Origin: a virus
Taxonomy: Duplodnaviria; Heunggongvirae; Uroviricota; Caudoviricetes
Virus record (IMG/VR): IMGVR_UViG_3300030035_000081
Coordinates: 1 to 64,000 of that record
Direction: 5' to 3' (one strand)
Length of the DNA stretch: 64,000 nt
The notes below the pieces were generated by a model. That model searched no databases and was not told the origin of the DNA. It was given only the letters and a program-made list of their open reading frames with translations. Positions within the stretch are counted from its first letter, which is position 1, and every line of letters starts with the position of its first letter. Position numbers and translations under genes: made by a program. This document shows positions 15,135-58,181 of the stretch, one piece after another.

Positions 15135-15602
15135 ATGAAAGACTACGGCAACGGCTATTCCATTGAGGAGCTTGCCGCAAAATACAGGTTGAGCGTCCGT
15201 ACATGCTATCGAGCGTTAGACGACGCGAAACAGGAGGCCAGAATTCAGTTGGCGCAGGTAGAGGATGCTAGAAAGGCCGAAATTCTTGCGGCATACAAGA
15301 ACAGTGTCCCTCTCAAGGAAATGATTGCGAAATTTAACGTGGCAGAAGGATATTGCAGCATGGTTGCCAACGATGCGGGCCTGACTGAAAACCGTAGAAA
15401 TGAGCGCATCAAAATTCGGCAAAAACCCCGCAATGAGAATATCTTTCGAGAATACGAGAGTGGCGTGCCGGTGCAGAAACTATCCGAAAAATATCAGCTC
15501 TCGGTTCCTGGTATTTACAAGGTTATCCAGCGAGTGAGAAGGCAAAAGGAGGCGATGAGTCTTGCAATGGATTGTGAAGCAAACCAAATCGAAAGGATAT
15601 GA
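15135..15602 (+). CDS. tandem helix-turn-helix repeat protein (3 repeats of G.S..ELA.KY.LS....Y-type HTH)
   Basis: Repeats such as YSIEELAAKYRLSVRTCYRAL and PVQKLSEKYQLSVPGIYKVIQ. Start uncertain. Confidence 0.5.
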   Translation: MKDYGNGYSIEELAAKYRLSVRTCYRALDDAKQEARIQLAQVEDARKAEILAAYKNSVPLKEMIAKFNVAEGYCSMVANDAGLTENRRNERIKIRQKPRNENIFREYESGVPVQKLSEKYQLSVPGIYKVIQRVRRQKEAMSLAMDCEANQIERI

Positions 15603-25421: not shown

Positions 25422-25657
25422 GGTGTACTCCTTTCAAATATGTCGTTAGCTGTACAATGCTGTCATCTTATGTAATTATAATAGCACATCCCGCACCAAA
25501 AAGCAAGCGCGAATTTACAATAAATGACAAGAAAATACACGAGATGACATATTTGAGCAAAGCAGTTGTTTTTTGGCATTTCCTGTTCAGCAACGGAACA
25601 AGTCCCATGTACCTTGTCTTTGCCACTGTTTTGCTACGGTTTTGCCACAATTTTGCC

Positions 25658-28045: not shown

Positions 28046-28079
28046 TTCGGTGCTGGATTTTTTATTGGGAGATATAGAC

Positions 28080-29144
28080 ATGGCAAAGAACGATAACCTT
28101 CATAAGGCGAAGGACGCGAAGAATGATGAGTTCTACACCAGAATCGAGGATGTCGCAGAGGAATTGCGGCACTACAAGAAGCATTTCGCAGGCAAGGTTG
28201 TATTCTGCAACTGTGACGACCCGACATGGTCCGCTTTCTGGCGGTATTTTCACCTGAACTTTGCAGAACTTGGCTTAAAGAAGCTGATTTCTACGCACTA
28301 TGACCACACCGAACCAACCTACAAGATGGAGTACGAGGGCGGGGATGATAATGATGTGGAAGTCGGTGTAAAAACCCTGCTGGAAGGCAACGGCGATTTC
28401 CGGAGCAAGGAATGCCTTGACTTGCTGGATGAAAGTGATATCGTGGTGACCAATCCGCCATTCAGCTTATTCCGTGAGTATGTTGGCACACTGATGCAGC
28501 ACGGCAAAAAGTTCCTGATTATCGGGAATAAGAACGCCATTACATACAAAGAGTTTTTTCCACTTCTGAAAGAAAACAAAGTGTGGATTGGTTATAGCTC
28601 ACCATCCGAGTTTGATACCCCCAATGGAATAACAAAGAAAATCAACGGTCTAACAAGATGGTTTACTAACCTCGACATCCAGAAGCGCCACGAGAAACTG
28701 ATTCTCTGGCAGCGGTACTATGACGATGACGGAAACCCTCTGCCGGACGTGGAAGAGCGCTACCCCCGCTATGATAACTACATGGCCATCAATGTGGATA
28801 GGGTTGCGAATATTCCGGTGGACTATGAAGGCGTTATGGGCGTGCCTATCACTTTTTTGGATAAGTATAATCCGGAGCAGTTTGAGATTGTTGGTGGTTC
28901 CATGTTCGATGATACGCCTTGCAGAGCCGATAAAGATTATACAAGCCTTGGCTTTAAGTTCTTCAAGGCGGATGGCGTAACAATCTCCGGCTCTGGTGCA
29001 TTAAGAGATAAGATGTCACCAAAAGTTGTTAAAAGAGGAAGGAGCGACTTTTCGGTAAGCCCTGATGGCGTGCAGCTTTCCGCAGTTTATCAGAGAATTT
29101 TTATCAGAAAAAGGAGGAAGCAAGGCGATGAAGGTACAAAATGA
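28080..29144 (+). CDS. putative DNA N6-adenine methyltransferase (NPPF motif)
   Basis: DIVVTNPPFS catalytic motif IV. Standalone, no cognate endonuclease recognised. Confidence 0.55.
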   Translation: MAKNDNLHKAKDAKNDEFYTRIEDVAEELRHYKKHFAGKVVFCNCDDPTWSAFWRYFHLNFAELGLKKLISTHYDHTEPTYKMEYEGGDDNDVEVGVKTLLEGNGDFRSKECLDLLDESDIVVTNPPFSLFREYVGTLMQHGKKFLIIGNKNAITYKEFFPLLKENKVWIGYSSPSEFDTPNGITKKINGLTRWFTNLDIQKRHEKLILWQRYYDDDGNPLPDVEERYPRYDNYMAINVDRVANIPVDYEGVMGVPITFLDKYNPEQFEIVGGSMFDDTPCRADKDYTSLGFKFFKADGVTISGSGALRDKMSPKVVKRGRSDFSVSPDGVQLSAVYQRIFIRKRRKQGDEGTK

Positions 29145-32595: not shown

Positions 32596-32722
32596 GAAAT
32601 TTGCCTTGAGTTTTTCGCAAGGCGTGATATAATAGAACCATCACAAAAGGTTTTGAGCCTCCCATCGTAATCAGTAGTATGCTGACTGCGGTGGGAGGCT
32701 GTTTATTTTAAGGAGGATTCTG
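32596..32722 (+). promoter_or_regulatory. promoter-leader module A: extended -10 TGATATAAT followed by leader hairpin AGCCTCCCA...TGGGAGGCT plus U-tract, then RBS
   Basis: Seen in sequence. Near-duplicate at 33960..34100. Confidence 0.45.
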
Positions 32723-33959: not shown

Positions 33960-34100
33960 GGTGTACTAAGATTGGCCTTGAGTAATTCGAGTAATTCACG
34001 AAGCGTGGTATAATAAGACTATCACAAAAGGTTTAATCCTCCATCGTAATCAGTATCACACTGACTGCGGTGGGAAGCTTTTTGTTTCGCAGAAAGAGGG
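33960..34100 (+). promoter_or_regulatory. promoter-leader module B (duplicate of module A, more degenerate hairpin)
   Basis: Shared blocks GCCTTGAGT, GCGTGGTATAATA, ATCACAAAAGGTTT, CCATCGTAATCAGTA, CTGACTGCGGTGGGA. Confidence 0.45.
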
Positions 34101-44142: not shown

Positions 44143-45303
44143 ATGAAAATTAAAAACAAGCTTTTACGGAGTACAGCGGCAATCATCGCTGCGCTCTTTG
44201 CACTCAGCTTCACCGGCTGCGGTCAGAGTCCGATAACCTCGGAAAGTCCATCCAGCACCGGGGCCGTCTCAGAAAGCGCTGCAAGCAGCGAGCAGACGGC
44301 TGGCGATTCGGTGGACGGCAGCTTTACTATTCACTTTATAGACGTAGGGCAGGCGGATTCCGCCCTTATCACCTGTGACGGCCACTCAATGCTTATTGAT
44401 GGCGGTAATGTAGATGATTCTAACCTCTTATATTCTGTTATGCAGCGTGAAACCGATGGACACCTGGATTATGTCGTTGGGACTCACGCGCACGAAGACC
44501 ACATCGGCGGCTTGTCCGGTGCTTTTGAGGCCGTCACTGCGGACATGACTCTATGCCCTGTGACGGAATACGACAGCAAAGCCTTTCGGGACTTTGCAAG
44601 CTACGCGGAGCAAAAAGGCGGAGGCATCACGATACCGGATGTGGGTGAAACTTACACTCTGGGGGAAGCGAAATTCACGATAGTTGGTGTTAATTCTGTT
44701 CCCGATGACACAAACAACACATCGATTGTTCTGCGTATTGTCTACGGGGATACTTCGTTTCTCTTTACCGGTGATGCTGAACAGGAAGCAGAAAATGTGA
44801 TACTTGCATCAGGACAAGACATTCAGTCAACAGTTCTGAAAGTAGGTCATCACGGCTCAAGCACATCTACCTCAGAGGCTTTTCTGGATGCGGTAAATCC
44901 AACATATGCTGTGATTTCTTGTGGCACAGGGAACAGTTACGGTCATCCACATCAGGAAACACTCGACAAGCTGCAAAACAAAGGTGTCGAGGTTTATCGC
45001 ACAGACCTGCTGGGTGATATTTACTGCTCATCTGATGGCAAAGAAGTGAGTTTCACATCCGACGAATATCATGATGAGAATCGGGTTGAAGCCGGTAGTG
45101 CTGCAGACTCCAAGGATAAACATAACAGCAGCCCTCTTGTGATAGACGAGACATACGTTCTGAACACGAGCACCATGAAGTTCCACATGCCCGATTGCTC
45201 TGCAGTCGAATCGATGAGCCAGAAGAATCGAATCGACTATATGGGTTCGCGTGACGAACTCATCCAGGAAGGGTATTCGGCTTGCGGAATTTGCAAACCT
45301 TAA
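44143..45303 (+). CDS. MBL-fold metallo-hydrolase lipoprotein (ComEC/Rec2-type beta-lactamase domain) with a C-terminal Cys4 region
   Basis: Lipobox LSFTGC. HFIDVGQADS, GTHAHEDHIGG and KVGHHGS motifs. Confidence 0.8.
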   Translation: MKIKNKLLRSTAAIIAALFALSFTGCGQSPITSESPSSTGAVSESAASSEQTAGDSVDGSFTIHFIDVGQADSALITCDGHSMLIDGGNVDDSNLLYSVMQRETDGHLDYVVGTHAHEDHIGGLSGAFEAVTADMTLCPVTEYDSKAFRDFASYAEQKGGGITIPDVGETYTLGEAKFTIVGVNSVPDDTNNTSIVLRIVYGDTSFLFTGDAEQEAENVILASGQDIQSTVLKVGHHGSSTSTSEAFLDAVNPTYAVISCGTGNSYGHPHQETLDKLQNKGVEVYRTDLLGDIYCSSDGKEVSFTSDEYHDENRVEAGSAADSKDKHNSSPLVIDETYVLNTSTMKFHMPDCSAVESMSQKNRIDYMGSRDELIQEGYSACGICKP

Positions 45304-45441
45304 AGGGGTATTTACGAAATTTGGTGGTTTGAATAAAATCATTTAATTTTGTATAGCGCCGTTCACCTTCTGGTGGACGGCTTTTTTCATGCAGCAGCGC
45401 AAAACAATAGGGCAGCGACCGCAATGGCCGTTGCCCTGTTT

Positions 45442-46269
45442 TCATTTTTGTATGAGATAGCTATAATGATGCATCTGCCGACGAATAAGCGCTTCACAAC
45501 GATTGCAGATGTCATTGCCATACTCAGAACGGAATACATCGATTATGTCCTTTACATCATGCGAACCAAAAGAAAACCTTAATTGGATGCCATATAATCC
45601 CTCTGCAGCATCAAGCTGGTCATCAAAATGCCGCGAAAACGGCTTTGCTTCTATTGCTTGCAGACAATCTTCTAATGGTCGTTCCAAAGGAAAATCCAAA
45701 CTGGTGTCGGATAAGAGTGACAAGCCATTGTCGAACAACGGACAGAGCGAATAGGTCTCATCGGTATCGTCATACAAAACAGCGATGTTGTTCGTGTGGC
45801 GGTCCTCGTTCAAGAAGAAAGCATCGACTTCGAGCATTGCTGTCAGATATGGTCCAAAGTCTCTGATTCCGGTATGCTTCTCAACGAAATCAACCAAGAA
45901 CTTGATTCTTTCTTGGACATCACCCTGCTTTGCAGTATCAATGGCAAGGCTGCCACCGGTATAGCTGCGATAGAGCTTTTCGAGAGGTATTAGCGTGGCT
46001 CTGCTGTTCTTGAGAATAAAATTCTCACTTCTGCATCCATTGTATGTCCGACCGTGATATAAAATCTTGGAATATTCGTACTTCACGAAAGGGTACTTGA
46101 TGCTGGACCTTACAAGCAATGCAGACACGATGCTTTCGGCTAAGCCTTCGTATCCCATGTGGTCAGCCTTATACCAGTAACCGTCGTACTTCCATTTCAG
46201 CTGATTGCCTTTAGATGTGTGATTTAGAGTTTCTTGCGGCTCTAAGTTGTTGAAGTCAACAAGCTGCAT
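45442..46269 (-). CDS. HipA-like Ser/Thr kinase toxin (HipA C-terminal domain only)
   Basis: FFLNEDRHTNNIAVL (D.H..N catalytic loop) and CPLFDNG. Confidence 0.6.
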   Translation of the reverse strand: MQLVDFNNLEPQETLNHTSKGNQLKWKYDGYWYKADHMGYEGLAESIVSALLVRSSIKYPFVKYEYSKILYHGRTYNGCRSENFILKNSRATLIPLEKLYRSYTGGSLAIDTAKQGDVQERIKFLVDFVEKHTGIRDFGPYLTAMLEVDAFFLNEDRHTNNIAVLYDDTDETYSLCPLFDNGLSLLSDTSLDFPLERPLEDCLQAIEAKPFSRHFDDQLDAAEGLYGIQLRFSFGSHDVKDIIDVFRSEYGNDICNRCEALIRRQMHHYSYLIQK

Positions 46270-46281
46270 ATTGGCCTCCTG

Positions 46282-46884
46282 TTACGCGGCAGGTCTCTTA
46301 ATAAGCTGCATCCACTGATGGTCACCTGCTATGCGGCCTTCCGTCTTCTCGATGATAAGGAGCGGGTCATAAAAAGGAACGCCCATATCACGCAGAATTT
46401 CCTTGATACCGGCCCGGCTCGCAGGAAGGCAACGGTCTTGCAGGAAAATCTCGAAATCTTTCCACGAAGGTTCTTCCACCACACCGAATGCGCGAAGAGG
46501 GATTTTATCTGTATAGTTTTTGATTTTGATTTTTTCGTGGCGGAAATCAACATCAATCGTAGTACAGAGCTGCTGCCTGTTCATGTAGTTGATACGCAGA
46601 GTATAATTCGGGTCGTCACTGAAATGCTGAGCTTTGTCGAGATACTTGTATATCGTCTGGCGGGAAACTTCGTATTTATCCGCGATAGCAGCTGCACTAA
46701 AACCGGAATTATGCAGCTCCACAATATCGACTATCTGGTCTTCAGATAAACAAGATTTCCTTCCCGCATTGCGTGGATTTTTTTGAGTGCATGGCACACT
46801 TTTGAGCTGTGCAGCATACTGGCGCAGCTGATTAAGGTCGGTGGTGCCAAAGATGTCTCTGATTTGCTCTTGATAAATATCCAT
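46282..46884 (-). CDS. HTH DNA-binding protein, putative HipB/HipS-like antitoxin partner
   Basis: Resolvase-type HTH SAAAIADKYEVSRQTIYKYL. 12-nt gap to the kinase gene. Confidence 0.5.
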   Translation of the reverse strand: MDIYQEQIRDIFGTTDLNQLRQYAAQLKSVPCTQKNPRNAGRKSCLSEDQIVDIVELHNSGFSAAAIADKYEVSRQTIYKYLDKAQHFSDDPNYTLRINYMNRQQLCTTIDVDFRHEKIKIKNYTDKIPLRAFGVVEEPSWKDFEIFLQDRCLPASRAGIKEILRDMGVPFYDPLLIIEKTEGRIAGDHQWMQLIKRPAA

Positions 46885-47013
46885 TGCAATACAGCCCTCC
46901 TTTCACTCTAACTATACCAACACAGCACCAAATTGTCAATAAATTAAATTGCAGACAAAGTCGCAAGCTCTGTCTGACCATTTTGTTTTTGCGGTTCAAA
47001 TCCCAAATCATAG

Positions 47014-47041
47014 TTGCGTGCTTGTGCGAACCGACTACAAT
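47014..47041 (+). promoter_or_regulatory. island promoter family member 13: -35 TTGCGT, spacer GCTTGTGCGAACCGAC, -10 TACAAT
   Basis: Seen in sequence. Confidence 0.6.
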
Positions 47042-47178
47042 AAAAATTGTACGATAGATAACATTCCATATCGAAAGGGTTTTATGCCTTTCGTACATTC
47101 ACAATTTCGCTTAAAGGGCGGACTTCCTGTTTTTAGGGAGCCCGCCCTTTTTGTATGAACAAGAAGGAGCGTAATGCA

Positions 47179-47919
47179 ATGTTCAAAATTCACAATGACA
47201 AAGTCTATTTCGTCGCCGAAACCCCTGACATCAACAAAGTTATCGAAATCTTCCTACCTAAGGATGACCGTGGCACCATTATGGATTCACACGAAATCCG
47301 TGTGGACCTGTGCCGTGCCGTCATTCACATGGAGAAGAAGGGTGTCCGTGTCTTAAAGGTCCGCAACATTGAGGATGCCAACAAGGAAAGCATCGACATC
47401 TGGCACATGCCGGAGTATCAGGAGGCTGCAGAGTCTCCCGTAAGCGATGTGGTCAATGCCTGCATCGAGTCCTACTTTGATTCCGGTGCCATGTTCAATC
47501 TGCCATGCAAAGCAAACCGCAAAACCCATGAAGTTTTTGCTGTCGAATGCTGCGCAAGCCCCGATGATGATGACTCGTTCAGCCATGCAGATGTTGAAAT
47601 TGACGGGCAGTCCTACCCGCTCAATTTTGTCTCTGACATCATGGATGAGAACGATGCCGACAACGCATTGGATGAGTTCTACCGAATCCAGCAGACCGGC
47701 GAATATTGGGAAGCGCACGGCGGCAAATCGCTCACGGACGCTATCCATGAATGCCGTTGGGCTATCCTGAAGGATGCCATCCAGAAGCGCGGACATGAGG
47801 CTGTTGCTGATTTTGTCGGGACCGACATTTCCAGCGATACTTACGACCGCGTGATGGATGAAACCGAAGCCCAGATGCCGGACGAAGAGTTCGAGCGCTT
47901 CTGGGAAAAGTACATCTAA
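47179..47919 (+). CDS. acidic hypothetical protein (246 aa)
   Basis: AAGGAG RBS 9 nt upstream. Confidence 0.6.
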   Translation: MFKIHNDKVYFVAETPDINKVIEIFLPKDDRGTIMDSHEIRVDLCRAVIHMEKKGVRVLKVRNIEDANKESIDIWHMPEYQEAAESPVSDVVNACIESYFDSGAMFNLPCKANRKTHEVFAVECCASPDDDDSFSHADVEIDGQSYPLNFVSDIMDENDADNALDEFYRIQQTGEYWEAHGGKSLTDAIHECRWAILKDAIQKRGHEAVADFVGTDISSDTYDRVMDETEAQMPDEEFERFWEKYI

Positions 47920-47954
47920 GAAACATCTCACACACAGAAAGGGAGCATATTACT

Positions 47955-48281
47955 ATGGCTATTTTCAATACCAACGAATTTCTCCGCAAAACCTTCAGCA
48001 AGACCATCTTTGGTACTGCTGCACTTCGTCCGGAAGCAGTTTGTGCAGACGGCTTCACCCTGTCGATTCAGGCAAGTGGCATGCACTACTGCATACCGAA
48101 CGAAGACCTGTCGGACGGCAATTACTCTAAGGTCGAACTCAGCTACTTGTCTGAGGAGGTCGAAGAGTTTCTGCCGTTTGCTGAAGACGACGAGGCACCG
48201 CTGGCTACGGTCTACGGGTATGTGCCCGTAGAAACCGTAGACGCGGTTCTGGCCAAGCACGGCGGTATCGTCAACGCGTGA
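47955..48281 (+). CDS. hypothetical protein (108 aa)
   Basis: AAGGGAG RBS. Confidence 0.55.
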   Translation: MAIFNTNEFLRKTFSKTIFGTAALRPEAVCADGFTLSIQASGMHYCIPNEDLSDGNYSKVELSYLSEEVEEFLPFAEDDEAPLATVYGYVPVETVDAVLAKHGGIVNA

Positions 48282-48297
48282 GGGGAGGGAACTTACG

Positions 48298-48624
48298 GTG
48301 GAAGTATTCACTATCGTCGCCAATGAGGTCATTGGCTTATCCGCAACGGAATGCACACTGATTCAGTTTAGCTACAATCCGGAGCAAATCCGTGACCCCG
48401 AAACGGTCCTGCGCAGTGCTGTCAAGGACTATCTCAAGACGGATGAAGGCAAACGACAGCTGGAAATCAACTGTGGTTGCTGGAACTGGGGCGATGTCGA
48501 TGACATTCCCGGCTCGTTCTTCTTGAACTATGGTCTGACTAAAATCGCTCCGCCGGATGTGAATGTTGTCGTCGACCGCAACGAGAACTTCATGGACGAC
48601 TACGAGGATTGCGAGGAAGAATAA
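48298..48624 (+). CDS. acidic hypothetical protein (108 aa; GTG start)
   Basis: GAGGGA RBS. Confidence 0.5.
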   Translation: MEVFTIVANEVIGLSATECTLIQFSYNPEQIRDPETVLRSAVKDYLKTDEGKRQLEINCGCWNWGDVDDIPGSFFLNYGLTKIAPPDVNVVVDRNENFMDDYEDCEEE

Positions 48625-48642
48625 CAGAAAGGGCATGAAAAA

Positions 48643-49383
48643 ATGCGTATTTATAGCGCAAACAACGTATTCATAGAAGTTACGCGCCGATGCAATATGT
48701 GCTGTGCGCACTGCCTGCGCGGAGATGCCGAAAGCATCGATATTCAGGAGAAGTACATCGATGCTTTTCTCGACAACTTTGAGAAGGGAGCTTATATCAG
48801 CTCTCTTACCTTTACCGGTGGGGAAATCTCTCTGAATATACCGGCAATTCGATACACCTTGAAAGCTGTCAAAGAGCGCGGTATCGCCGTTGGAAGCTTT
48901 TACATGGTCGCTAACGGAAAAGCTGTCGATAAGATGGCTGACCTTGCTATGGCGAGTCTGGAGTGGTGGGCCTACTGCGATGAAAAAGATGACTATATGT
49001 GCGGTCTTTGCATCAGCAGTGATAACTTCCACGAAGCAATCCCATATGAAAGTGAAAGTATCCTTAGTGGCTTGAAATATAACCGTAACGATAAGGTAAC
49101 GGACTTCCATCTGGCTTATTTACTGAACGAAGGGCGTGCTAAGAATCTCGATTCGAATATCTATAAGAAGCGTGAACCTCATGTAGACAAGCTCGAATAC
49201 GAATTCAACAAAACCGGCGATATCGACTTTTACAGCGGCGAGCTGTACTTGAACGCCATCGGTGATGTCGTTTCCGGCTGCGATTGGTCCTACAAGTCGC
49301 AGAAGAAATATCGTTTTGGTAATGTAATGAACAAAAACTGGCTGGAAAACATTTCCAACAGCGAGTTGTACATTGCAAGCTAA
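48643..49383 (+). CDS. radical SAM domain protein (CxxxCxxC)
   Basis: CNMCCAHC cluster motif near the N-terminus and a GGE motif. 246 aa. Confidence 0.7.
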   Translation: MRIYSANNVFIEVTRRCNMCCAHCLRGDAESIDIQEKYIDAFLDNFEKGAYISSLTFTGGEISLNIPAIRYTLKAVKERGIAVGSFYMVANGKAVDKMADLAMASLEWWAYCDEKDDYMCGLCISSDNFHEAIPYESESILSGLKYNRNDKVTDFHLAYLLNEGRAKNLDSNIYKKREPHVDKLEYEFNKTGDIDFYSGELYLNAIGDVVSGCDWSYKSQKKYRFGNVMNKNWLENISNSELYIAS

Positions 49384-49453
49384 ACCATATCACTTATACA
49401 TTGCCACTGTTTTCCTACAGAAACGGTGGCTTTTTTAGAAAAGGAGACCACAA

Positions 49454-50887
49454 ATGACTGAAACAAAAGACATGTTTGAACAAATCAGCGCCATCTTAAC
49501 CGATAAGAAAGATAAGCCGTTTTCTTATGAGGAGCTTGCAGCAATGCTCAAAACTGACCCTGATGCCCTCAAAACCTTTGATGAGGTCTATAAGACACAG
49601 GTTCTTGAAAGCGGAGAGCTGCATGAAAATATGCTCCAGTGGGATACAGCTACAGTCAAAGCAATTCTCGACAAAAAGGTCTACTTCCCACCGGAACTCA
49701 ATTCGCTCATTGACCGCATCGTCACAGAACTGGTGCTTGAAACGCGTCTGTACATCTACAACGCGGAACGCGGTGGCTATTATGTGACATACTCTGCCAA
49801 CCGCGACTTTATGACAGAGGTTACAAACGAGGAGTTGAAACGCTACCCCGAAGAACTCCGTCCGCAGCTCACCGGAAAGTTGATGAAGATTGACATTTCT
49901 GAGCCGTCGTACAAGGAATTGCTTCAAAACTACGCAGGCTACAAGAATGCAAAGAACGACAGCACAAAAATGTTCTACTACAACATGTTCCGTCAAGGTC
50001 TTGACATCCTCGACCTTGATGACTTCACTTATCAGATGCTTGAGATGAACCCCAACTCTATGGGCTTCTGGTTTCCTCCTCTGGTAGAGGGATTGTACGG
50101 CAGCGCATTTTTCAAGGTTCCGGACACAAAAATTCTTCGCGTACCTATCACCATGCTGCAGCTTACCCGCCTTGGTTTCGAGACGTTGAATCCCGTTACA
50201 AAGGAAATCGTGAACCGTTATTGCCAGAAAGTCTTCCATCTTGATGGATACGAAGACTATTTTATCAAAACGGGCACGTATTCTTCCAAATACGAATTCC
50301 GCAACGCTCATATCCATAACCCGAAGGAAATCAATGAGATGGGCGAGTATTTCTTGTTTTTGAATCATCTGACATGCTCGATGGCATCCCCTCTGAACAA
50401 TCGCTGCTTCTACGGCGCGAACACCACGAACGAGTGGGTCGTCAGAGAATACATCAAGGACAAAGAAAATAACCCCACCATCTACAACGGTTTGCCGCTG
50501 CACACTGAATATCGCGTGTTTGTGGATTTTGATACAAAGGAAATCCTTGGCGCAAGTCCTTATTGGCGCAGCGATGTTATGAAGAACGAATTCAAAAAAG
50601 TCAGCAGCCCACAGGAACGCCATGATTATGTTGTCTACAAGATGCATGAAGACATTCTGAACCAGCGTTACCACGAAAGCGTTCAAACTGTTCTGGCTGA
50701 GCTGAAGAAGGTTATTCCTCGCATTGAGTTGACAGGGCAGTGGAGCGTCGATGTAATGCGCAACGGCAATGATTACTACATCATTGATATGGCTCTTGCT
50801 GAGAATTCCGCTCTGAATGACTGCGTACCGAAAAATCTGCTTCGCGCTTATCCTCAGCAGTGGCTGCCGGGTGAATCGAACAGCTGA
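49454..50887 (+). CDS. ATP-grasp-like domain protein (tentative)
   Basis: EYRVFVDF and YYIIDMALAENS resemble ATP-grasp nucleotide-binding strands. 477 aa. Confidence 0.45.
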   Translation: MTETKDMFEQISAILTDKKDKPFSYEELAAMLKTDPDALKTFDEVYKTQVLESGELHENMLQWDTATVKAILDKKVYFPPELNSLIDRIVTELVLETRLYIYNAERGGYYVTYSANRDFMTEVTNEELKRYPEELRPQLTGKLMKIDISEPSYKELLQNYAGYKNAKNDSTKMFYYNMFRQGLDILDLDDFTYQMLEMNPNSMGFWFPPLVEGLYGSAFFKVPDTKILRVPITMLQLTRLGFETLNPVTKEIVNRYCQKVFHLDGYEDYFIKTGTYSSKYEFRNAHIHNPKEINEMGEYFLFLNHLTCSMASPLNNRCFYGANTTNEWVVREYIKDKENNPTIYNGLPLHTEYRVFVDFDTKEILGASPYWRSDVMKNEFKKVSSPQERHDYVVYKMHEDILNQRYHESVQTVLAELKKVIPRIELTGQWSVDVMRNGNDYYIIDMALAENSALNDCVPKNLLRAYPQQWLPGESNS

Positions 50888-51008
50888 TACTCCTAGAACG
50901 AAACTTTGATTCGGGTTCTTTCAGCAAAAAGCGTAGGAACCAAAATCATACGAAATGATTGTGTTAACACATAAAAACAAGTATAATATATGCAAGGAAG
51001 TGATAATA

Positions 51009-51461
51009 ATGGTTCTGTATCATGGCAGCGATGTAATAGTCCGCAACCCTGAGGTCAGAAAAACAAGGTACGCCAAAGATTTTTCATGGGGATTCTATTG
51101 CACTAGCAACTACGAACAAGCCGCTCGCTGGTCAAAAAAAGGCAGGTCTCGTGGTATTGTCAACGTGTTTGAATATACAGAATCTCCTATGCTAAATATT
51201 AAGAAATTCCCCGAAATGAGTGATGAGTGGCTTGATTTTATTGCTATATGTCGTTCGGGCAAACATCATGACTATGATATTGTGGAAGGACCCATGGCGG
51301 ATGACACCATTTGGAACTACGTCAACGACTTTCTAAGCGGTGATATTAGCCGTGAAGCTTTTTGGGCGTTGGCAAAATTCAAGCATCCCACGCATCAAAT
51401 CAGCTTTCACACGGAAGTCGCTTTGAAATGTCTCTCTTTTAAGGAGGCGATTGAAGTATGA
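51009..51461 (+). CDS. DUF3990-like protein
   Basis: MVLYHGS opening typical of DUF3990. Paired with a downstream DUF3791-like gene. Confidence 0.5.
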   Translation: MVLYHGSDVIVRNPEVRKTRYAKDFSWGFYCTSNYEQAARWSKKGRSRGIVNVFEYTESPMLNIKKFPEMSDEWLDFIAICRSGKHHDYDIVEGPMADDTIWNYVNDFLSGDISREAFWALAKFKHPTHQISFHTEVALKCLSFKEAIEV

Positions 51462-51907
51462 CTGAAACTGCAACCTACAGCAAAAACGATGTCTTTTATA
51501 CCTGCAGCCTGATTGAATATATCGGCCGCGTTACGAGGAATCATCGCAAGGATGTGGTTTCTGCTCTTGGCACAAACGGAGTCAAGGCAATTCTCGACTC
51601 AGCGGATGTGTTTCACTGCCAGAGCTTTGAGCAATCTGCCGATGAAATTTGTGAGCTTTTTCCTGTGCCGGAAGGAACGTATGATACGGTGTCTAACTGC
51701 CATTACAAGGTTCCATCTTATACAGATATCGGAAAAGTGTACCAGCGCATCATCTTTGACTGTACTAGCACTCCTAGTGTCCAGGATGTAATTGATGTAT
51801 TTTCCTCGTTCATTAGCGATGACATCTCAGATTTTAATACTGCAACTTACTATTGTAATCCGAGCTATTTGTACCACTCATACAAGGCCGGAAAACTACT
51901 GGATTGA
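51458..51907 (+). CDS. DUF3791-like protein
   Basis: Overlapping start and stop with the DUF3990 gene. Family assignment from memory of architecture. Confidence 0.45.
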   Translation: MTETATYSKNDVFYTCSLIEYIGRVTRNHRKDVVSALGTNGVKAILDSADVFHCQSFEQSADEICELFPVPEGTYDTVSNCHYKVPSYTDIGKVYQRIIFDCTSTPSVQDVIDVFSSFISDDISDFNTATYYCNPSYLYHSYKAGKLLD

Positions 51908-51928
51908 TTTTCAAAAGCAATAGCAATC

Positions 51929-51968
51929 AAGACCACTGCCCCAAAAAGGGTGGTGGTCTTATTTTTTT
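51929..51968 (+). terminator. intrinsic terminator
   Basis: AAGACCAC...GTGGTCTT plus T-run. Confidence 0.65.
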
Positions 51969-52005
51969 GCACAACACTTACCATAAATTACCAGAAAGAA
52001 AAACA

Positions 52006-52033
52006 TTGTGCATCTGTGCGAATTGCATATAAT
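52006..52033 (+). promoter_or_regulatory. island promoter family member 14: -35 TTGTGC, spacer ATCTGTGCGAATTGCA, -10 TATAAT
   Basis: Seen in sequence. Confidence 0.6.
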
Positions 52034-52145
52034 ACAAAATATAGAACGAAAGGCATCAAAAAACATCGTTGGTCGGGCAAAATCCGACCGAAAGGCTAGG
52101 GCGGGCTCAGTTTTGAACCTGCTCTTTCTTTTTATCGGAGGCTTT

Positions 52146-52673
52146 ATGTCAAACAAAGAAGAACGCATGAACCGCAATAAAAGCATCATCGAAGATTACA
52201 AAAATGGAAAGCCGATTTTAGAAATCGCGAGGGACTATAATCTTTCAGAAACGATGTGCTACAAGATTCTAAAAGGTACGCAGGAGCCGCCTCGTTATTT
52301 TGAAAAAAAGAGGAAGAGACTTACCACTCGAAATGAGCAAATTGTTAAACAGTATAAAGGCGGTATGACGGCCAGAGAATTGGGCAAGATGTACGGCATT
52401 TCCATGCAGCGTATTTATGCAATCTTGCATTCGAGCGGAGAGTACGAAAGCCAAAAATACAATCATATTGAAACAGCTCTCAAAAAAGAGAAAAAGATGC
52501 GGAACCAAACTTTTCTTGATGCTTACAAGAAAAATCCTCGAAAATCGATTATCGAGTTGAGCAGGGAGGTAAATATCAGCCCTTCACTAGGTTATCTTAT
52601 CCTTCATCAAAATGGGATTTACCAGTATAACGTAAAAGCCAGAGCTAAGGAGAATAGCGAAAATGCCGATTAA
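52146..52673 (+). CDS. tandem HTH-repeat protein (3 repeats)
   Basis: Repeats PILEIARDYNLSETMCYKILKG, TARELGKMYGISMQRIYAILHS and SIIELSREVNISPSLGYLILHQ. Confidence 0.6.
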   Translation: MSNKEERMNRNKSIIEDYKNGKPILEIARDYNLSETMCYKILKGTQEPPRYFEKKRKRLTTRNEQIVKQYKGGMTARELGKMYGISMQRIYAILHSSGEYESQKYNHIETALKKEKKMRNQTFLDAYKKNPRKSIIELSREVNISPSLGYLILHQNGIYQYNVKARAKENSENAD

Positions 52674-53181
52674 CAAGATTACCCACGTGTGTCTAACTCA
52701 TGACAAAGTCAGGGCGCGAAATGAAAAGATGCTGGAGGATGCCAAGAACGGTATGTCCCAGGAACAGCTGGCCGAAAAGTATCAAATTTGTGTTTCTACT
52801 GTCCGATATAGTCTGAAGGACTTTTACGAAGAACAGGCCCGGCAGAGAAAAGCAAAGAAGAAAGCCTGGCAAACCCAGATGATTCATGAATATGAGATGG
52901 GCGCAAAATCTCCGGAGCTTCAGGAAAAATACGGCATCAGTGGAACGCTCTTTTATCGGATTCTTCATGCACACGGAAAGAATGGCCGACAAATCCACAG
53001 CCAAAACCGTATCGAGACTGGCAAGAAAAGAAACGCCGAGATGGTCAGGAAATACAAAAACGGCGTTTCTGTCAAAGAGCTTGCGGAAGAATACGGGCTC
53101 AAAAAGGGAAGCGTATATCGCGCCATGAAGCGGTATAGTCCAGGCCCAGGGAAAAGTAAAAGTTGTCAAAGTGAGGAATAA
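52663..53181 (+). CDS. tandem HTH-repeat protein (3 repeats)
   Basis: SQEQLAEKYQICVSTVRYSL, SPELQEKYGISGTLFYRIL and SVKELAEEYGLKKGSVYRAM. Confidence 0.6.
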   Translation: MPINKITHVCLTHDKVRARNEKMLEDAKNGMSQEQLAEKYQICVSTVRYSLKDFYEEQARQRKAKKKAWQTQMIHEYEMGAKSPELQEKYGISGTLFYRILHAHGKNGRQIHSQNRIETGKKRNAEMVRKYKNGVSVKELAEEYGLKKGSVYRAMKRYSPGPGKSKSCQSEE

Positions 53182-53185
53182 TTGC

Positions 53186-54139
53186 ATGGCTGCATCAAAG
53201 AAAGATGTTGCGAAGCAGCAGGTCAAAGAAGACCGAGAAAAAGTCCGGGAAATGTATCTTTCTGGCAAAACTGTCAAGGAAATCGCCAAGGAAACGTATT
53301 TTTCAAGCTCTTATTGCTATGCCATGGTGAGAGACCTAGCAAAAGAAAAGAATCTTGCAAAGAAAGCAAAAAGAGCACCTCTCGACGAAGCTATGATTCA
53401 AGATGCGAAAGCCGGGATGACGGTTGCTGAAATCGCAAAGAAGCATGGCGTGACCTATCAGCAGTGCTACTATACTGTTTCTGAATACGCTCAAGCTACG
53501 ATTAAGAAGAACAAGAAAAAGCAGTCTGCTGCCACGAAAGTTCGCAATGCGGCTATGTTGGAAGATGCGAAAGCCGGAATGACTGATAAGGAAATCGCCA
53601 AAAAATACTTTTTGTCTCGAAGCAGTGTCCGTACCGTCCTTGCAGGGCATTTACATACAAATTCCAAAAAGTTGGATGAAAGGCGCAAGGCGATTCTTGC
53701 GGATTATGAGGCAGGAACGTCCTCAAAAGACATCTGTGAGAAATACGGTATTTCAAAATCCACTCTTTACAAGGACATGCGCCAAATTGGAAAAACCTGT
53801 CAGGAATACTATCACAAGGCGCTGAAAGACAAGACCAATCGAAGGAATTCCGATATTCGAAGCAAAATCGAAAGAGGGGTCTCGGTCAGCACTATTGCCA
53901 AGGAATACGGAATCTCTAAAACGGCGATTTATGAAACGTTTCATCAGGAAAATGTCAGAGCTGGAATTTTACAGAAACGCGGCCGTCCGCGAAAAAACAC
54001 GGAACGTAATGCACTGATTGCTAAACGCCACAGGGAAGGCGAGAAGGTGCAGGCGCTTGCCACTGAATATAATCTCTCTGTTTCGACGGTAAACACTATT
54101 TGCAGTAGAAACAAAAATCAGAATATAACCTCATATTAA
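53186..54139 (+). CDS. tandem HTH-repeat protein (6 repeats)
   Basis: Six units of pattern G.(T/S)..EIAK.YG.S..T.Y. Confidence 0.6.
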   Translation: MAASKKDVAKQQVKEDREKVREMYLSGKTVKEIAKETYFSSSYCYAMVRDLAKEKNLAKKAKRAPLDEAMIQDAKAGMTVAEIAKKHGVTYQQCYYTVSEYAQATIKKNKKKQSAATKVRNAAMLEDAKAGMTDKEIAKKYFLSRSSVRTVLAGHLHTNSKKLDERRKAILADYEAGTSSKDICEKYGISKSTLYKDMRQIGKTCQEYYHKALKDKTNRRNSDIRSKIERGVSVSTIAKEYGISKTAIYETFHQENVRAGILQKRGRPRKNTERNALIAKRHREGEKVQALATEYNLSVSTVNTICSRNKNQNITSY

Positions 54140-54184
54140 CAGGCTGCCATTTGGCGGCCTATTTCTTTTTTAGGAGGAAATGAA

Positions 54185-55099
54185 ATGACAGACGACGTAC
54201 GTAATTTAATTCGATTTGTGGTGGATGGCGATATTCGAAACGCGCAGACTCAGTGCCGAATCATGCTTGAAAAGAATGTACCCGAAAAGGACGCCAGGTT
54301 CAAAGAAAACGAACTCAGAAAGTTGAATCTTCTGAAACCGGAACTGATTCAGCTGCCCGCCAACCTGGAAAACCTCTTGATTGCGGAGGATGCCACGAAT
54401 TTCCCTGAGAGCCGGTTCCTGCTCCGCGAGGAGGAAGAAACAGTCATCAACAAGCTCTTGGCCACCAGAAAAGCAGCTTTAGCCATCAAGGAGCTTGGCA
54501 TCCACTATACTTGCTCTTTGCTTTTGACGGGCCTTCCTGGTGTTGGTAAGACTGAATTGGCCCGCTACATTGCACACAAGGCGAATTTACCGTTTGTTTT
54601 CCTGAAATTCTCTGGCCTTGTCAATTCTGCTCTTGGTCGTACACAGCAGAATATCGGCAGAGTATTCGACTACGCAAAACGCACGCCCTGCGTTCTCTGC
54701 GTTGACGAAATTGATGCCATCGGAATGTGCCGTGGCGGCCGTGATGACGTCGCTGAAATGAGCCGTGTCACCATTGCTTTGATGCAGGAACTTGACCGGC
54801 TCCCGAATGACGTCATTCTCATTGGCACTACAAACCGCGTCGATAACCTTGACGAAGCCCTCATTCGCCGATTCACTTTCAAACACCGCGTCAAGCCTTT
54901 AGGCGACGATGACATGAAAGAACTGTGCAAGAAGTTCCTTGCTTCGGCAGACTATCCCTTCACGGAATCCGAACTCGACGAACTCTGCCATTCGCTGCGT
55001 GAACAGCGGACTGCCAGCGCCGTTGTCAATGCCTGTACAGAACGTATCGTTGCACATATCGTATCGCAGTTGCCTGAAAATTCGGCAGATGCCGTGTAA
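54185..55099 (+). CDS. AAA+ family ATPase (classic AAA core)
   Basis: Walker A GLPGVGKT, Walker B VLCVDEID, sensor/arginine region LIGTTNRVDNLDEALIRRF. Confidence 0.8.
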   Translation: MTDDVRNLIRFVVDGDIRNAQTQCRIMLEKNVPEKDARFKENELRKLNLLKPELIQLPANLENLLIAEDATNFPESRFLLREEEETVINKLLATRKAALAIKELGIHYTCSLLLTGLPGVGKTELARYIAHKANLPFVFLKFSGLVNSALGRTQQNIGRVFDYAKRTPCVLCVDEIDAIGMCRGGRDDVAEMSRVTIALMQELDRLPNDVILIGTTNRVDNLDEALIRRFTFKHRVKPLGDDDMKELCKKFLASADYPFTESELDELCHSLREQRTASAVVNACTERIVAHIVSQLPENSADAV

Positions 55100-55802
55100 A
55101 AGTATGATAGCCTGGGAAGAAAGCCCTCGTCAGTTTAAGATGTCCAAGCAACTCGATGAGGGAAAATTCGGAGAAGACTTGGCTCGCAAATTCCTTAACG
55201 ACCCGATTATCAAAGTGAATCATGGCATTAGCCATTACGATGACGTGACTCAGGATAAATCATATCAAGACAAAGATACCGATTTCATCGTCTGGAAGAA
55301 AAATGGAAAGACCTTTGGTCTGGAAGCGAAAGTGGACAGTCACAATACCGGAAATTTCTACCTGGAAACCTCGGTGGACTACTTCTCCATGGTGCCTGAC
55401 GCTCTGAACGAACAACGGGTGGCGCGGCGGTATCGGGATGGCATCGACCCTTTATGGCACACCCCGGGCTGGGTATACAGGAGTGGTGCGGACCAGATTC
55501 TCTATTATTTCAGAACCACGCAGCTGCTTTACATTTTCTCCCGCGTTGATGTCTGGTTCTATGCTGAAAAGCTGATGCGCGGTGGAATCCATCTCGACCC
55601 CGGAATCAGAAAGCCAAAAATGTATTCTGCCGAAAATATCAGTGAACGCAATGGTTCCACTCTCTTCTTTGCCAACGGCTTATGCGTGAATGCTGAGCAG
55701 ACATACAAGGCTTTAGGGGCACAAAAAAGAGTCATCAAATACCAGGTTGAAAGCCCTGATTCAGACGTTCCAACGTTCAGCTTTTGCCCTTTCAAATTAT
55801 GA
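55089..55802 (+). CDS. PD-(D/E)xK-like nuclease-fold protein (tentative), translationally coupled to the AAA ATPase
   Basis: ATG overlaps the AAA stop (ATGCCGTGTAA). DTDFIVWKKNGKTFGLEAKVD gives a D...EAK motif. Confidence 0.5.
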   Translation: MPCKSMIAWEESPRQFKMSKQLDEGKFGEDLARKFLNDPIIKVNHGISHYDDVTQDKSYQDKDTDFIVWKKNGKTFGLEAKVDSHNTGNFYLETSVDYFSMVPDALNEQRVARRYRDGIDPLWHTPGWVYRSGADQILYYFRTTQLLYIFSRVDVWFYAEKLMRGGIHLDPGIRKPKMYSAENISERNGSTLFFANGLCVNAEQTYKALGAQKRVIKYQVESPDSDVPTFSFCPFKL

Positions 55803-55883
55803 ATTTTTCGCTAACAATCGTCAAGAAATCACATTTCAGTTTATCGGAAGAGTATAATTGTAGTAGAAAGAGAGAAAAAAAGC

Positions 55884-56093
55884 ATGAACCAAATCAACGT
55901 TGTCACGATTGGGAAACTCATTGAAGCGCATCGTGAAGGTGACGAGCAGAAGTTCAAAACTTACGTCGATTTTATTGTAAAAGCCTACGAAGAGCAGGAG
56001 AACGACCGTGCCGCACGAATCATCCGAAGCAGCTATACGGGTGACTACGGTGAGCAGGGGAAAGTTGTTCTGGATGAAGCAAACGGACTCTGA
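55884..56093 (+). CDS. hypothetical small protein (69 aa)
   Basis: GAGAGA RBS. Overlaps the alternative ORF 56070..56229. Confidence 0.4.
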   Translation: MNQINVVTIGKLIEAHREGDEQKFKTYVDFIVKAYEEQENDRAARIIRSSYTGDYGEQGKVVLDEANGL

Positions 56094-56231
56094 GGAAGAG
56101 GCCCTGCAACAGCTGCAAAAGCACGCAGCAAACTATGCACAACGTATCACGATATATAAGATAGACGGTAGAACCGTGAAACGGGAAGTTGCCGAATACG
56201 ACCAGTGGGAAAAGAAGTGGATGAGTTAATC

Positions 56232-56708
56232 ATGAAGCACAAAATCTCGGAAACCGGCGCTCGGATGCTTAAATATCAAGAGCAGCTTGCCGACGAATAC
56301 AAGTACAAGCCCATCCCACGTACCTTTTTCAAGGATGTGCGGGCAGAATTTGAAGAAACTTTGCCGGAATGGTGCAATATGTCCGGCGATACGACCAAAC
56401 TCGAAACCAGAAGCGGCACGGTCATTGCCAGCGGGTATAACCGAATCGTGATTGGCGACTACGGCGCATTCGTTGAGTTTCCGCGTGCCCAAGCAAATGC
56501 ACGTCATTTGAAAATCAAAGAGGGGCAAAGCTATCGTATCGAAGACCCGCGCTATGCCGAACATGTGAAATATCTTTGGCTCACAGCGGACGATAACTCT
56601 GACGTGAAAGTATACGACCAAAAGCGCTTGGTTGAGTACGCTGACTACAAGCCGGGGATGCTGTATGTCAGCGTGTACGAGGTGTTTCCGGCAGAAGAAG
56701 GTCACTGA
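56232..56708 (+). CDS. hypothetical protein (158 aa)
   Basis: ORF. Last plus-strand gene of the island. Confidence 0.55.
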   Translation: MKHKISETGARMLKYQEQLADEYKYKPIPRTFFKDVRAEFEETLPEWCNMSGDTTKLETRSGTVIASGYNRIVIGDYGAFVEFPRAQANARHLKIKEGQSYRIEDPRYAEHVKYLWLTADDNSDVKVYDQKRLVEYADYKPGMLYVSVYEVFPAEEGH

Positions 56709-56935
56709 AAAGAAAGCCGAACCACGGGACGAATGGGGACAGGGTGATTCCATTGCTGACCTATACGCAAAGAGCGGTGCAGTGGTTTCACAGGTCAGCT
56801 CGGCCAAAGATTTACTGAATTTCCTGCAAACTGCCGGAAACGCAAGGCATTTGTGATGCACTTGCCTCAACCACAAGATATAGTGGTATCTTAATGTTTG
56901 TTTACAATTTAGACACTATATATTGTGTCTTTTCA

Positions 56936-56964
56936 TTGACCGGATACCACATATATGGTATAAT
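56936..56964 (+). promoter_or_regulatory. strong housekeeping-type promoter TTGACC, 17-nt spacer, TGgTATAAT (extended -10), upstream of the tRNA region
   Basis: Seen in sequence. Confidence 0.6.
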
Positions 56965-57104
56965 ACAATTGTTCTCAGGAAGAGGAACGGCTCCTGAGAC
57001 ATCAAGGTTTTCCTTTCCCCAATCTTGGTCGCATGGCTTCATTTGAGCTGACACAGGTGAAGCGTGAAAATCATCCGTTTCATAGTAATATCCTTCCTTT
57101 CTTT

Positions 57105-57196
57105 GGCGCGGGTAACTCCGCGCCAGCCGTCCAAGCAAACAGCCTCCACGCGGTGGACGGTGGACAACAGATGTTTCCGTGTTCCGGGCATCTGGC
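57105..57196 (+). ncRNA. copy 2 of recurring structured RNA motif (CCGTCCA/TGGACGG stem around AGCAAACAGCCUCCACGCGG; then TGGACAAC and hairpin)
   Basis: Seen in sequence. Confidence 0.45.
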
Positions 57197-57210
57197 TAAT
57201 GTTTGTATTT

Positions 57211-57286
57211 GCTGGTTTAGCTCAGCTGGTAGTGCAACTGATTTGTAATCAGTCGGTCATCGGTTCAAGTCCGATTTCCAGCTCCA
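57211..57286 (+). tRNA. tRNA-Thr(UGU)-like with two U-U mismatches at the base of the acceptor stem
   Basis: Manual cloverleaf. Anticodon loop TTTGTAA, T-arm ATCGG/CCGAT, encoded CCA. Confidence 0.5.
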
Positions 57287-57759
57287 GACGCTATCCGTTG
57301 GATGTATCGAAATCACATGATACGATGCTATACACAACATCTGGCGGACAGCATGCCACCCATTAAGGCGGCCTCCTCGTGGCGGGTGGCGGACAGCGGC
57401 TCTTGCGGCTGCTGACGAATGTCTTAGAAGCATGCAAACGTACGAGCATCCCCGTCAAGTCGGGGCGCATCCAGACGCGACACAGCCGTAAAGGCGAGAT
57501 TGCTGCACGGCAACTGGTAAGTTTCGCCGCAGTCTCACACACAGCCCAACAACAACCGTTAACCCGATTTGACAGGGAATCAACGACAGGGCTCAAAATT
57601 TGAAGTTGACCAACACCCAAGCGCTTTCTTGGATTCTCGCGTATCGTCAACGATGAGGTTCGCAAGATTGTCAGGTGGTGTGAAGATGACATCCGGGGAT
57701 GACGACCTACTAAACGGATGTCATGGCGGGGCTAAGTGAGGGTTCACCCGCAATCTTAT

Positions 57760-57834
57760 GCAGGTATCGTATAACGGCTAATACTCCGCCCCTCCAAGGC
57801 GGAGACGCGGGTTCGACCCCCGCTACTTGCTCCA
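57760..57834 (+). tRNA. tRNA-Gly(UCC)
   Basis: Manual cloverleaf. Anticodon loop CCTCCAA, T-loop TTCGACC, CCA encoded. Confidence 0.8.
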
Positions 57835-58105
57835 CACGTCGCAGTCACCGTACCCACGACGTTAAACTTGGTGAGCATGGTCCACTTGTGGTCCGCTGTC
57901 CGAATGTCGATGAGACAGCCTCAAAAATAATAGACAAACAGGTGCTGTGCCTGATAGTATCCAATAGTCCCGGTATTAGTCGCGAATAAGACCGGAAAAC
58001 AGCGGAAAGGGTATAAAGCAGAATCCATCGATGCAGCTATCGAATGGTGCTGGATGCGAGTTGGCTTCTCGCTCAAGGGGTGACCAGCATAAAACACCCT
58101 ATCGT

Positions 58106-58181
58106 GCTCGATTAGCTCAGTTGGTAGAGCAGCGCATTCGTAACGCGCAGGTCGGCAGTTCGAACCTGCCATCAAGCCCCA
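58106..58181 (+). tRNA. tRNA-Thr(CGU)
   Basis: Anticodon loop TTCGTAA. One mismatch each in the acceptor and anticodon stems. Confidence 0.7.

Follow-up and report, generated by a model that had tools for sequence, protein, structure and literature searches.

Four phage proteins built of tandem helix-turn-helix modules are candidate DNA-binding regulators

The four genes and their modules

The window discussed in this paper is the whole stretch of 64,000 nucleotides (nt) formed by positions 1 to 64,000 of the IMG/VR virus record IMGVR_UViG_3300030035_000081, a member of the Caudoviricetes. Four of its genes, here named A, B, C and D, encode basic proteins built of tandem helix-turn-helix (HTH) modules: A, B and C follow one another, and D lies apart. 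All four open reading frames (ORFs) were found on the + strand where an earlier note on this DNA had placed them, and its count of 3, 3, 6 and 3 modules in A, B, C and D agrees with our delimitation of the modules and, for A and C, with AlphaFold2 models; Pfam models match each protein several times. We favour the reading that these proteins are sequence-specific multi-HTH DNA-binding regulators, with a probability of roughly 55%; that they bind DNA as such is predicted with much greater confidence.

The coordinates of the genes and of their modules are collected in Table 1. Genes A and B overlap by 11 nt, and metagenome gene callers report the same four products, of 175, 172, 317 and 155 amino acids (aa). 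The preferred start of C is ATG 53186, preceded by a GAGGA Shine-Dalgarno site, with GTG 53171 as the alternative. For D, the true start is probably TTG 15111, which restores helix 1 of the first module: this helix ('LIERNCNI') is encoded in frame upstream of ATG 15135, and the segment is kept in the distant relatives P0220 and P0222. The strong Shine-Dalgarno site AAAGGAG upstream of D, at 15071-15077, has only a non-canonical ATC (15087) after it.

Fifteen modules were delimited (A1-3, B1-3, C1-6 and D1-3), with a core of 45 aa and a period of about 50-54 aa. Their consensus is xxxRNxxIxxxYKxGxxxxELAxKYxxSxxxxY, at a mean pairwise identity of 23% over the 15 modules; each is a three-helix HTH of the type found in the C-terminal part of Mor and in serine recombinases, and Lys/Arg-rich linkers run between them. 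None of A-D has a domain for dimerisation, sensing or enzymatic activity. The statement that the proteins consist solely of HTH repeats holds for nearly their whole length and is slightly too strong, since D ends in a conserved non-HTH tail of about 16 aa. Scanning all six frames of the window with the module profile recovers, as multi-module ORFs on the + strand, exactly A-D.

On the - strand, the same scan returned two weak HTH_7-type proteins, one of 123 aa with two modules (63552-63923) and one of 200 aa with a single module (46282-46884). In sister contigs, the 123-aa HTH_7-type gene stands divergent from a CI/XRE-like gene of 73 aa.

The structural models, computed for A and C, show confident HTH modules, floppy linkers and no further domain. 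For C, six three-helix modules have block values of the predicted local distance difference test (pLDDT) of about 75-86, the linkers fall below 50, and the predicted template modelling score (pTM) is 0.27; for A, three modules have pLDDT 82-91, with a pTM of 0.35. As modelled, both proteins are beads on a string, and this flexibility is the expected reason why the full-length models gave no significant Foldseek match in the PDB.

Family matches and structural neighbours

In Pfam, protein C matches HTH_23 in five stretches (E=1e-27), HTH_28 in five and HTH_7 in four, and proteins A, B and D match HTH_28, HTH_23 and the C-terminal half of Mor at 1e-9 to 1e-14. HTH_7, the C-terminal DNA-binding domain of serine recombinases, is found in all four proteins. 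Weaker Pfam matches are HTH_psq in B and HTH_AraC in C, with no membership of HTH_18. Among the PHROGs, the matches are to families named 'late transcriptional activator' (Mor-type) and to several named 'DNA binding protein', with alignments that span at least two modules. The NCBIfam model NF040785 (CD3324 family, 82 aa, cut-off 65) gives 83.8 bits for C only as the sum of four stretches, and 51.7-57.6 bits for A, B and D; the matches cover only model positions of about 36-82.

The earlier note had pointed out that membership of a known helical repeat family that does not bind DNA would speak against its proposal. No such family appears among the matches in Pfam, PHROG or NCBIfam: none of A-D matches TPR, HEAT, Sel1, ankyrin or similar repeats.

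The nearest structural neighbours of single modules are DNA-bound HTH domains (Tc3 transposase, sigma region 4). For two consecutive modules, the best local Foldseek matches are of the AraC/XylS type (3mkl, with probability 0.99; Rns; AdpA); AraC/XylS proteins differ from A-D in their rigid seven-helix unit, their fixed linker helix, and their attached sensor or dimerisation domain. The module profile compared with the PDB finds Cbp2 (2lvs) at E=2.8e-9, with both Cbp2 repeats aligned, and the HTH of Bin3 at 4.8e-5. The top profile match, the 'CAP repeat' of PDB 8vd6, which is also the sole match to a repeat protein, was dismissed as a de novo designed repeat protein (PMC12339374).

The matches to sigma factors were considered separately. 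Sigma70_r4 (threshold 24.1) gives 22.0 bits for A and 17.6 for B, and 36.6 for C only when summed, without a single qualifying stretch; TIGR02937, for sigma factors of extracytoplasmic function (ECF), gives at most 39.8 bits against a cut-off of 42.9. Together with the name 'specialized sigma subunit' that the Joint Genome Institute (JGI) attaches to one relative, these weak matches would suit decoys that imitate sigma region 4 or a different HTH and, rather than binding DNA, bind proteins, titrating host RNA polymerase, anti-sigma factors or defence sensors. We find such a role barely plausible: the sigma matches stay under the family thresholds and are weaker than those to Mor, resolvases and Cbp proteins, no sigma region 2 was found in A-D with Pfam or NCBIfam, and the strong positive charge suits DNA rather than a DNA mimic or decoy. 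Nor do A-D match the N-terminal catalytic domain of resolvases, for which the arrays, filling the proteins, leave no room. These proteins are neither recombinases nor sigma factors.

Known systems with tandem modules

The closest characterised architecture is that of Cbp1 and Cbp2 (PDB 2LVS; PMC3597662, PMC3315313, PMC10883916), small basic proteins in which imperfect HTH repeats, three in Cbp1 and two in Cbp2, stand in tandem with basic linkers between them and nothing else is added. This build, tandem HTHs on basic linkers without any other domain, is also that of the arrays of A-D. The three modules of Cbp1 align 5' to 3' along a CRISPR repeat of about 25 base pairs (bp), and deletion of an end module lowers the affinity without abolishing binding (PMC10883916); in Cbp2, a basic linker tethers the two modules on about 25 bp, and the protein has been structurally aligned with Pax6 and c-Myb (PMC3597662). 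Besides CRISPR repeats, Cbp1/Cbp2 bind transposon-associated sites (PMC10883916). Whereas Cbp1 and Cbp2 are encoded by crenarchaeal chromosomal genes, A-D are phage genes, with four paralogues in one genome and up to 6 modules. The Cbp1 equivalog (NCBIfam NF040595, cut-off 140 bits) gives 50.3 bits for C, 24.8 for A, 21.4 for B and no match for D, and the sub-threshold HTH_Cbp1 alignment spans two modules. Unlike the setting of Cbp1 and Cbp2, the window contains no CRISPR-like array, and Cren7, the partner of Cbp1, is irrelevant in bacteria.

The second comparison is with Mor/C of phage Mu (PF08765; PDB 1RR7, 9L0X), which are also phage-encoded. Activators of this family switch on middle or late phage promoters from sites that adjoin or cover the -35 element. 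All four proteins exceed the gathering threshold of PF08765, 24.9 bits (A 38.8, B 30.1, C 40.5, D 47.7), and JGI names these same proteins 'Mor family transcriptional regulator'. However, A-D match only model positions of about 54-101 of 107, two to three times per protein, and lack the N-terminal dimerisation domain. In Mor and C each chain has one HTH and the protein acts as a dimer on a dyad, whereas A-D link 3-6 HTHs in cis. The label is misleading for A-D because the dimerisation half of Mor is missing. A bridge between the two architectures is provided by the relative P0101, in which a complete Mor-like N-terminus is followed by three extra modules; its gene lies in a phage contig shortly ahead of a holin gene, and next to it are a sigma-region-4 protein and a canonical Mor gene, a layout that ties the poly-HTH architecture to phage transcription regulators of the Mor type.

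Serine recombinases (Hin, Sin/Bin3, Tn3 resolvase) share HTH_7 with A-D, which lack the catalytic domain and have the HTH multiplied. A GRPRK arm, which resembles the minor-groove arm of Hin, precedes module 6 of C. From their sequences, A-D appear to be paralogous, with modules derived from the C-terminal module of Mor/C-type activators and from serine-recombinase-type HTHs.

More remotely, the arrays recall the R1R2R3 repeats of Myb and the paired domain of Pax, in which three-helix HTHs of about 50 aa are arrayed in one chain on adjacent DNA subsites, and Pipsqueak, with its four Psq repeats of 50 aa. These proteins are eukaryotic, their 2-4 repeats usually sit within larger multi-domain proteins, and the likeness shown here is one of architecture. 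By analogy, A-D may be said to resemble Cbp1 and Cbp2 and, at a greater distance, the Myb, Pax and Pipsqueak arrays.

Spread of the design

A single-module profile was searched against 1.84 billion cluster representatives. With a cut-off of E<=1e-3 it matches 12,620 proteins; tightening the cut-off to E<=1e-10 leaves 1,487 clusters, and E<=1e-30 leaves 62. The best matches carry 2-22 matched stretches. Among the 147 top representatives, 135 have at least three modules and 64 at least six, the array covers at least 80% of the protein in 81, and the median period is 52 aa; P0104, with 12 modules, and P0106, with 9, are modules and nothing else. One relative with 7 modules lies in a Rhodothermales chromosome, where it adjoins a transposase. 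Nineteen of the 20 top poly-HTH clusters that were looked up are unnamed in any source, and a literature search on tandem or multiple HTH proteins returned nothing on such bacterial or phage proteins. P0104 has no relative among cultured phages, and IMG/VR yielded relatives of neither P0104 nor P0109. The idea that A, B and C, with 12 modules together, are a split P0104 was rejected, as a module-by-module matrix shows no colinearity.

The poly-HTH design is thus widespread yet uncharacterised in bacteria and phages, and not peculiar to this phage. The suggestion of a new class of regulators does not survive these counts, with 1,487 clusters of 2-22 modules, nor the existence of characterised analogues in Cbp1/Cbp2, Myb and Pax: A-D are an uncharacterised phage and bacterial form of the established concept of a tandem-HTH DNA reader, with up to 6 modules here and 22 elsewhere.

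Conservation and natural variants

Orthologues of A and C, at 74-98% identity, are most conserved in helix 3: 73% of its columns are invariant, versus 48% in the linkers (Fisher p=4e-4), and in A all of the 33 helix-3 positions stay invariant down to 74% identity. More diverged orthologues are P0141 (D-like, 61% identity), P0138, P0178 and P0199. The comparison of modules within one protein, made on 94 arrays with at least five modules, gives the opposite picture. Positions 29, 30, 33 and 34, in helix 3, are the most variable (13-27% identity), the scaffold positions R4, I8, Y12, G15, I21, V32 and L36 are 60-93% identical, and in 83 of the 94 arrays the conservation of helix 3a falls short of that of helix 1 (p=7e-14). 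Variability among paralogous modules combined with conservation among orthologues is the usual signature of residues that determine specificity. Consequently, the pattern favours a sequence-specific reading of composite sites, made of non-identical subsites. The earlier proposal that the arrays recognise repeated DNA sites is not borne out, since the base-contacting positions of helix 3 differ from module to module, which predicts composite sites instead.

Natural variants are known for C. Modules 2 and 3 (53390-53604) share 79% DNA identity over 53 nt, and variants of 263-264 aa with five modules, found in many samples, are in-register hybrids of C2 and C3; judging from their sequences, they arise by in-register recombination between these two modules. 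The IMG/VR loci listed at '73% identity' are this five-module variant, and are otherwise near-identical. Other forms include a C4/C5 junction form and a frameshifted form of 212 aa with 133 members. Rare in-frame deletions, with 1-3 members each, fuse modules 1-2(3) of C to the AAA ATPase encoded after it.

Promoters and operons

Genes A, B and C form a self-contained operon, with its own promoter, three tightly packed genes, and flanking terminators (Table 1). Gene D is the first gene behind its own copy of the promoter. Both copies belong to a promoter family of the form TTGC-N5-TGTGCGAATTGC-N-TACAAT, with 16 copies in the window (5916-52051), every one of them on the + strand and not one on the - strand; each stands before a gene block, and two directly precede D and A. 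The 12-mer TGTGCGAATTGC by itself has 8 copies in the window at no more than one mismatch, all on the + strand, versus 0.63 expected. What sets the family apart is the unusual conservation of its spacer (GTGCGAA), together with a downstream flank rich in A: the conserved block has a core of 28 bp, or about 47 bp with the flank.

Table 1. Positions, in the window, of the four genes, of their modules, and of the associated promoters and terminators, with the length variants of C
Feature	Coordinates	Strand	Product	Net charge	Modules and other details
Gene A	52146-52673	+	175 aa	+14	modules 52164-52298, 52320-52454, 52491-52625
Gene B	52663-53181	+	172 aa	+15	modules 52708-52842, 52858-52992, 53020-53154
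Gene C	53186-54139	+	317 aa	+31	six HTH modules: 53222-53356, 53372-53506, 53534-53668, 53672-53806, 53834-53968, 53996-54130
Gene D	15111-15602 (probable start)	+	155 aa as called from ATG 15135	+6	modules 15111-15245, 15261-15395, 15420-15554, then conserved C-terminal tail of about 16 aa
Intrinsic terminator	51929-51960	+			strong; 13-bp stem and T run; closes upstream operon (PDC-M10-like pair)
Promoter of A-B-C	52006-52033	+			-35 TTGTGC 52006-52011; 16-nt spacer; -10 TATAAT 52028-52033; TGTGCGAATTGC in spacer, 52015-52026
Terminator-like hairpin	54141-54160	+			8-bp stem, 6 G-C pairs, T-rich tail; directly after C stop; closes A-B-C operon
Promoter of D	15024-15051	+			-35 TTGCCC 15024-15029; 16-nt spacer; -10 GACAAT 15046-15051; TGTGCGAATTGC in spacer, 15033-15044
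Promoter-family motif starts	5925, 6092, 8272, 12446, 15032, 16242, 19382, 25666, 35006, 35412, 35933, 36039, 38271, 44012, 47022, 52014	+			
Length variants of C			P0046, P0063, P0062, P0073, P0090, P0092		

The repeated spacer element had been put forward as an obvious candidate target of the arrays. That proposal stands in part: the motif is real and belongs to 16 promoters, two of them ahead of D and A, but each promoter has a single 12-bp copy, which is too short for 3-6 modules and has room for one or two at most. By analogy with the footprint of a three-module protein, it is the whole promoter block of 28-47 bp that would fit.

Two further repeats were observed. About 3.5 tandem copies of an 11-bp unit (TTTGCCAC; TTTGCCACnnT), one helical turn in length, lie at 25619-25657, with phased TTGC-like boxes, and run up to and into the -35 element of the promoter at 25657; they could be a multi-site protein-binding array, and this is the sole array of its kind seen in the window. 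A duplicated block of about 100 nt (32608-32708 and 33989-34087, 80-85% identity) holds a different promoter of the extended -10 type (GTGATATAAT), with a leader, before two small + strand genes.

A proposed model of DNA reading

The reading as regulators draws on the basic charge of A-D, on the signature of helix 3, on the context of P0101, on their expression from the promoter family, and on the precedent of Cbp1 and Cbp2. In the model that we propose, A-D would bind DNA as monomers, in a multivalent and sequence-specific manner. The third helix of each module would lie in the major groove and recognise a short subsite of its own, and the backbone or the minor groove would be tracked by the Lys/Arg-rich linkers, one of which has the Hin-like GRPRK arm. 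The footprint of A, B and D would be about 25-35 bp, and that of C about twice as long, by analogy with three-module Cbp1. The proteins would serve transcriptional control within an accessory region of the phage, devoted to defence and counter-defence. Their leading target would be the phage's own family of sigma-A-type promoters, which also drives both A-B-C and D, and binding there could produce a Cro-like feedback or shut-off, or a Mor-like activation. That this family is the actual target is a tentative proposition, with the odds against it.

Several observations weigh against the model. The reader of the conserved spacer might just as well be another factor, for instance a phage sigma factor or an appropriator, or RNA polymerase itself. 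The close homologues, at 87-100% identity, all come from one phage species, and thus offer no co-variation of promoter and protein to compare. The conservation test among orthologues includes only 9-12 closely related sequences. Exposed helix positions are variable in many protein families, and the variability between modules is suggestive, not proof. Finally, the persistence of the five-module variants of C suggests a tolerant multivalent binding rather than one rigid composite site.

This last point leads to the possibility that A-D are architectural or silencing proteins, which would coat or bridge DNA with low specificity instead of occupying defined operators: they might compact or silence the host nucleoid, shield the phage DNA from nucleases, or form chromatin as Cbp1 does with Cren7. 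The very high positive charge, the flexible basic linkers, and the lack of any oligomerisation or effector domain agree with such a role, as does the tolerance of five as well as six modules in natural populations; arrays of 12-22 modules elsewhere are hard to square with a single operator, and the 12-module P0104 has a sub-threshold match (39.8 bits, cut-off 75) to the MvaT/MvaU nucleoid-structuring model. We nevertheless consider it rather unlikely, as recognition helices that are the most conserved part between orthologues and distinct between modules form the pattern of a specific reader, and as the phage keeps four different paralogues, not one abundant coating protein.

The phage and the neighbouring genes

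The window is an accessory region of a very common element of the human gut, of roughly 260 kb, which is probably a jumbo phage to judge by its contigs and its 18 tRNA genes. Identical copies of B, C and D turn up in about 900-2,100 metagenome assembly blocks, repeatedly on contigs of 253-272 kb, and the 63 loci found in IMG/VR are all classed as viral and belong to one phage species. Among cultured phages and plasmids, there is no DNA similarity to positions 45000-60000, and no protein similarity to C. No relative of C occurs in the GTDB species genomes, so that no host can be assigned; the Shine-Dalgarno sites and the -35/-10 promoters point to a host of the Firmicutes type.

The gene that follows C by 46 bp encodes an IetA-like AAA ATPase (54185-55099; padloc E=1.9e-55; Pfam AAA); within the region 54185-55802, it is followed by a 232-aa protein of no recognised family, in place of the IetS protease. 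It is conceivable that A-D are adaptors that tether this ATPase and its 232-aa partner to DNA: besides the proximity of the two genes, the unrelated 5-module P0103 is directly followed by a double-AAA protein, and C and the ATPase are fused in frame in rare variants. However, between C and the ATPase lies a terminator-like hairpin, no ATPase gene is found beside D, and the fusions are deletions that remove modules 3-6 together with the N-terminus of the ATPase, in 1-3 members each. With two co-occurrences only, and no statistics, we hold this adaptor role to be very improbable.

Before A, a pair of genes at 50955-51907, encoding a DUF3990 protein and a protein of 149 aa, matches PDC-M10A/B, a candidate defence system. 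Other neighbours of a defence or counter-defence type are an AcrVA2-like protein, an Apyc1-like MBL protein, GmrSD/HNH, an EcoRI-type methylase and a PLD nuclease, and a Lar gene is present in sister contigs. Such company raises the possibility of a role in counter-defence or competition, in which A-D would bind host CRISPR repeats, the ends of transposons or insertion sequences (IS), or the DNA of rival elements, and block their expression or use. The loci of A-D indeed lie among the AcrVA2-like, Apyc1-like, Lar, PDC-M10-like and IetA-like genes, the 7-module relative of Rhodothermales adjoins a transposase, and the CRISPR repeats and transposon-associated sites bound by Cbp1 and Cbp2 (PMC10883916) are targets of just this kind. 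This role seems to us very unlikely, given that A-D are far from the HTH_Cbp1 equivalog (50 bits against 140) and that no CRISPR-like array lies in the window.

Further features of the window are recorded here. A segment of low GC content (41%) at 26177-29144 encodes a 622-aa DUF4379 zinc-finger protein with a weak match to restriction endonucleases and, after it, an adenine methyltransferase of the EcoRI type (Pfam E=4e-109); by its gene content, this segment is a restriction-modification-like cassette within the phage.

Eighteen tRNA genes, all on the + strand, lie at 57211-63564; the one at 58634-58709 has a two-base anticodon ('ca') that ARAGORN could not assign, and was not recovered by Rfam. 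An HDV-like ribozyme is found at 10872-10941 on the + strand (Rfam RF02682, 'HDV-F-prausnitzii', 60.4 bits, gathering 44), and four more similar copies of about 45-70 nt, also on the + strand, lie near 35804, 57124, 57353 and 58931, several of them flanking tRNA genes. A HEARO RNA (RF02033, 91 bits, gathering 83) at 6182-6442 on the + strand has no IscB ORF with it; its neighbours are a TnpB/IS605 gene (4446-5555, - strand) on one side and an SPFH/flotillin gene on the other. HEARO RNAs are usually the RNA partners of IS elements of the IscB type.

Implications

A broader reading, which we regard as unlikely, is that poly-HTH arrays are a widespread natural system for the modular reading of DNA in phages and bacteria, the HTH counterpart of zinc-finger or TALE arrays. 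Each conserved scaffold of about 50 aa would have its subsite set by the hypervariable helix-3 positions 29, 30, 33 and 34, and arrays of 2-22 modules would address from tens to more than 100 bp; the recognition code might be decipherable, and phages would direct such arrays to their own sets of promoters, or to the DNA of hosts and rivals.

If A-D do read long composite sites module by module, a large phage would have a simple, monomeric means to control a whole family of promoters, or to mark foreign DNA, and the approximately 1,500 clusters would offer a large and so far untapped source of DNA readers that might be engineered. Four genes, 16 conserved promoters and natural variants with five and six modules make up a compact and directly testable system.

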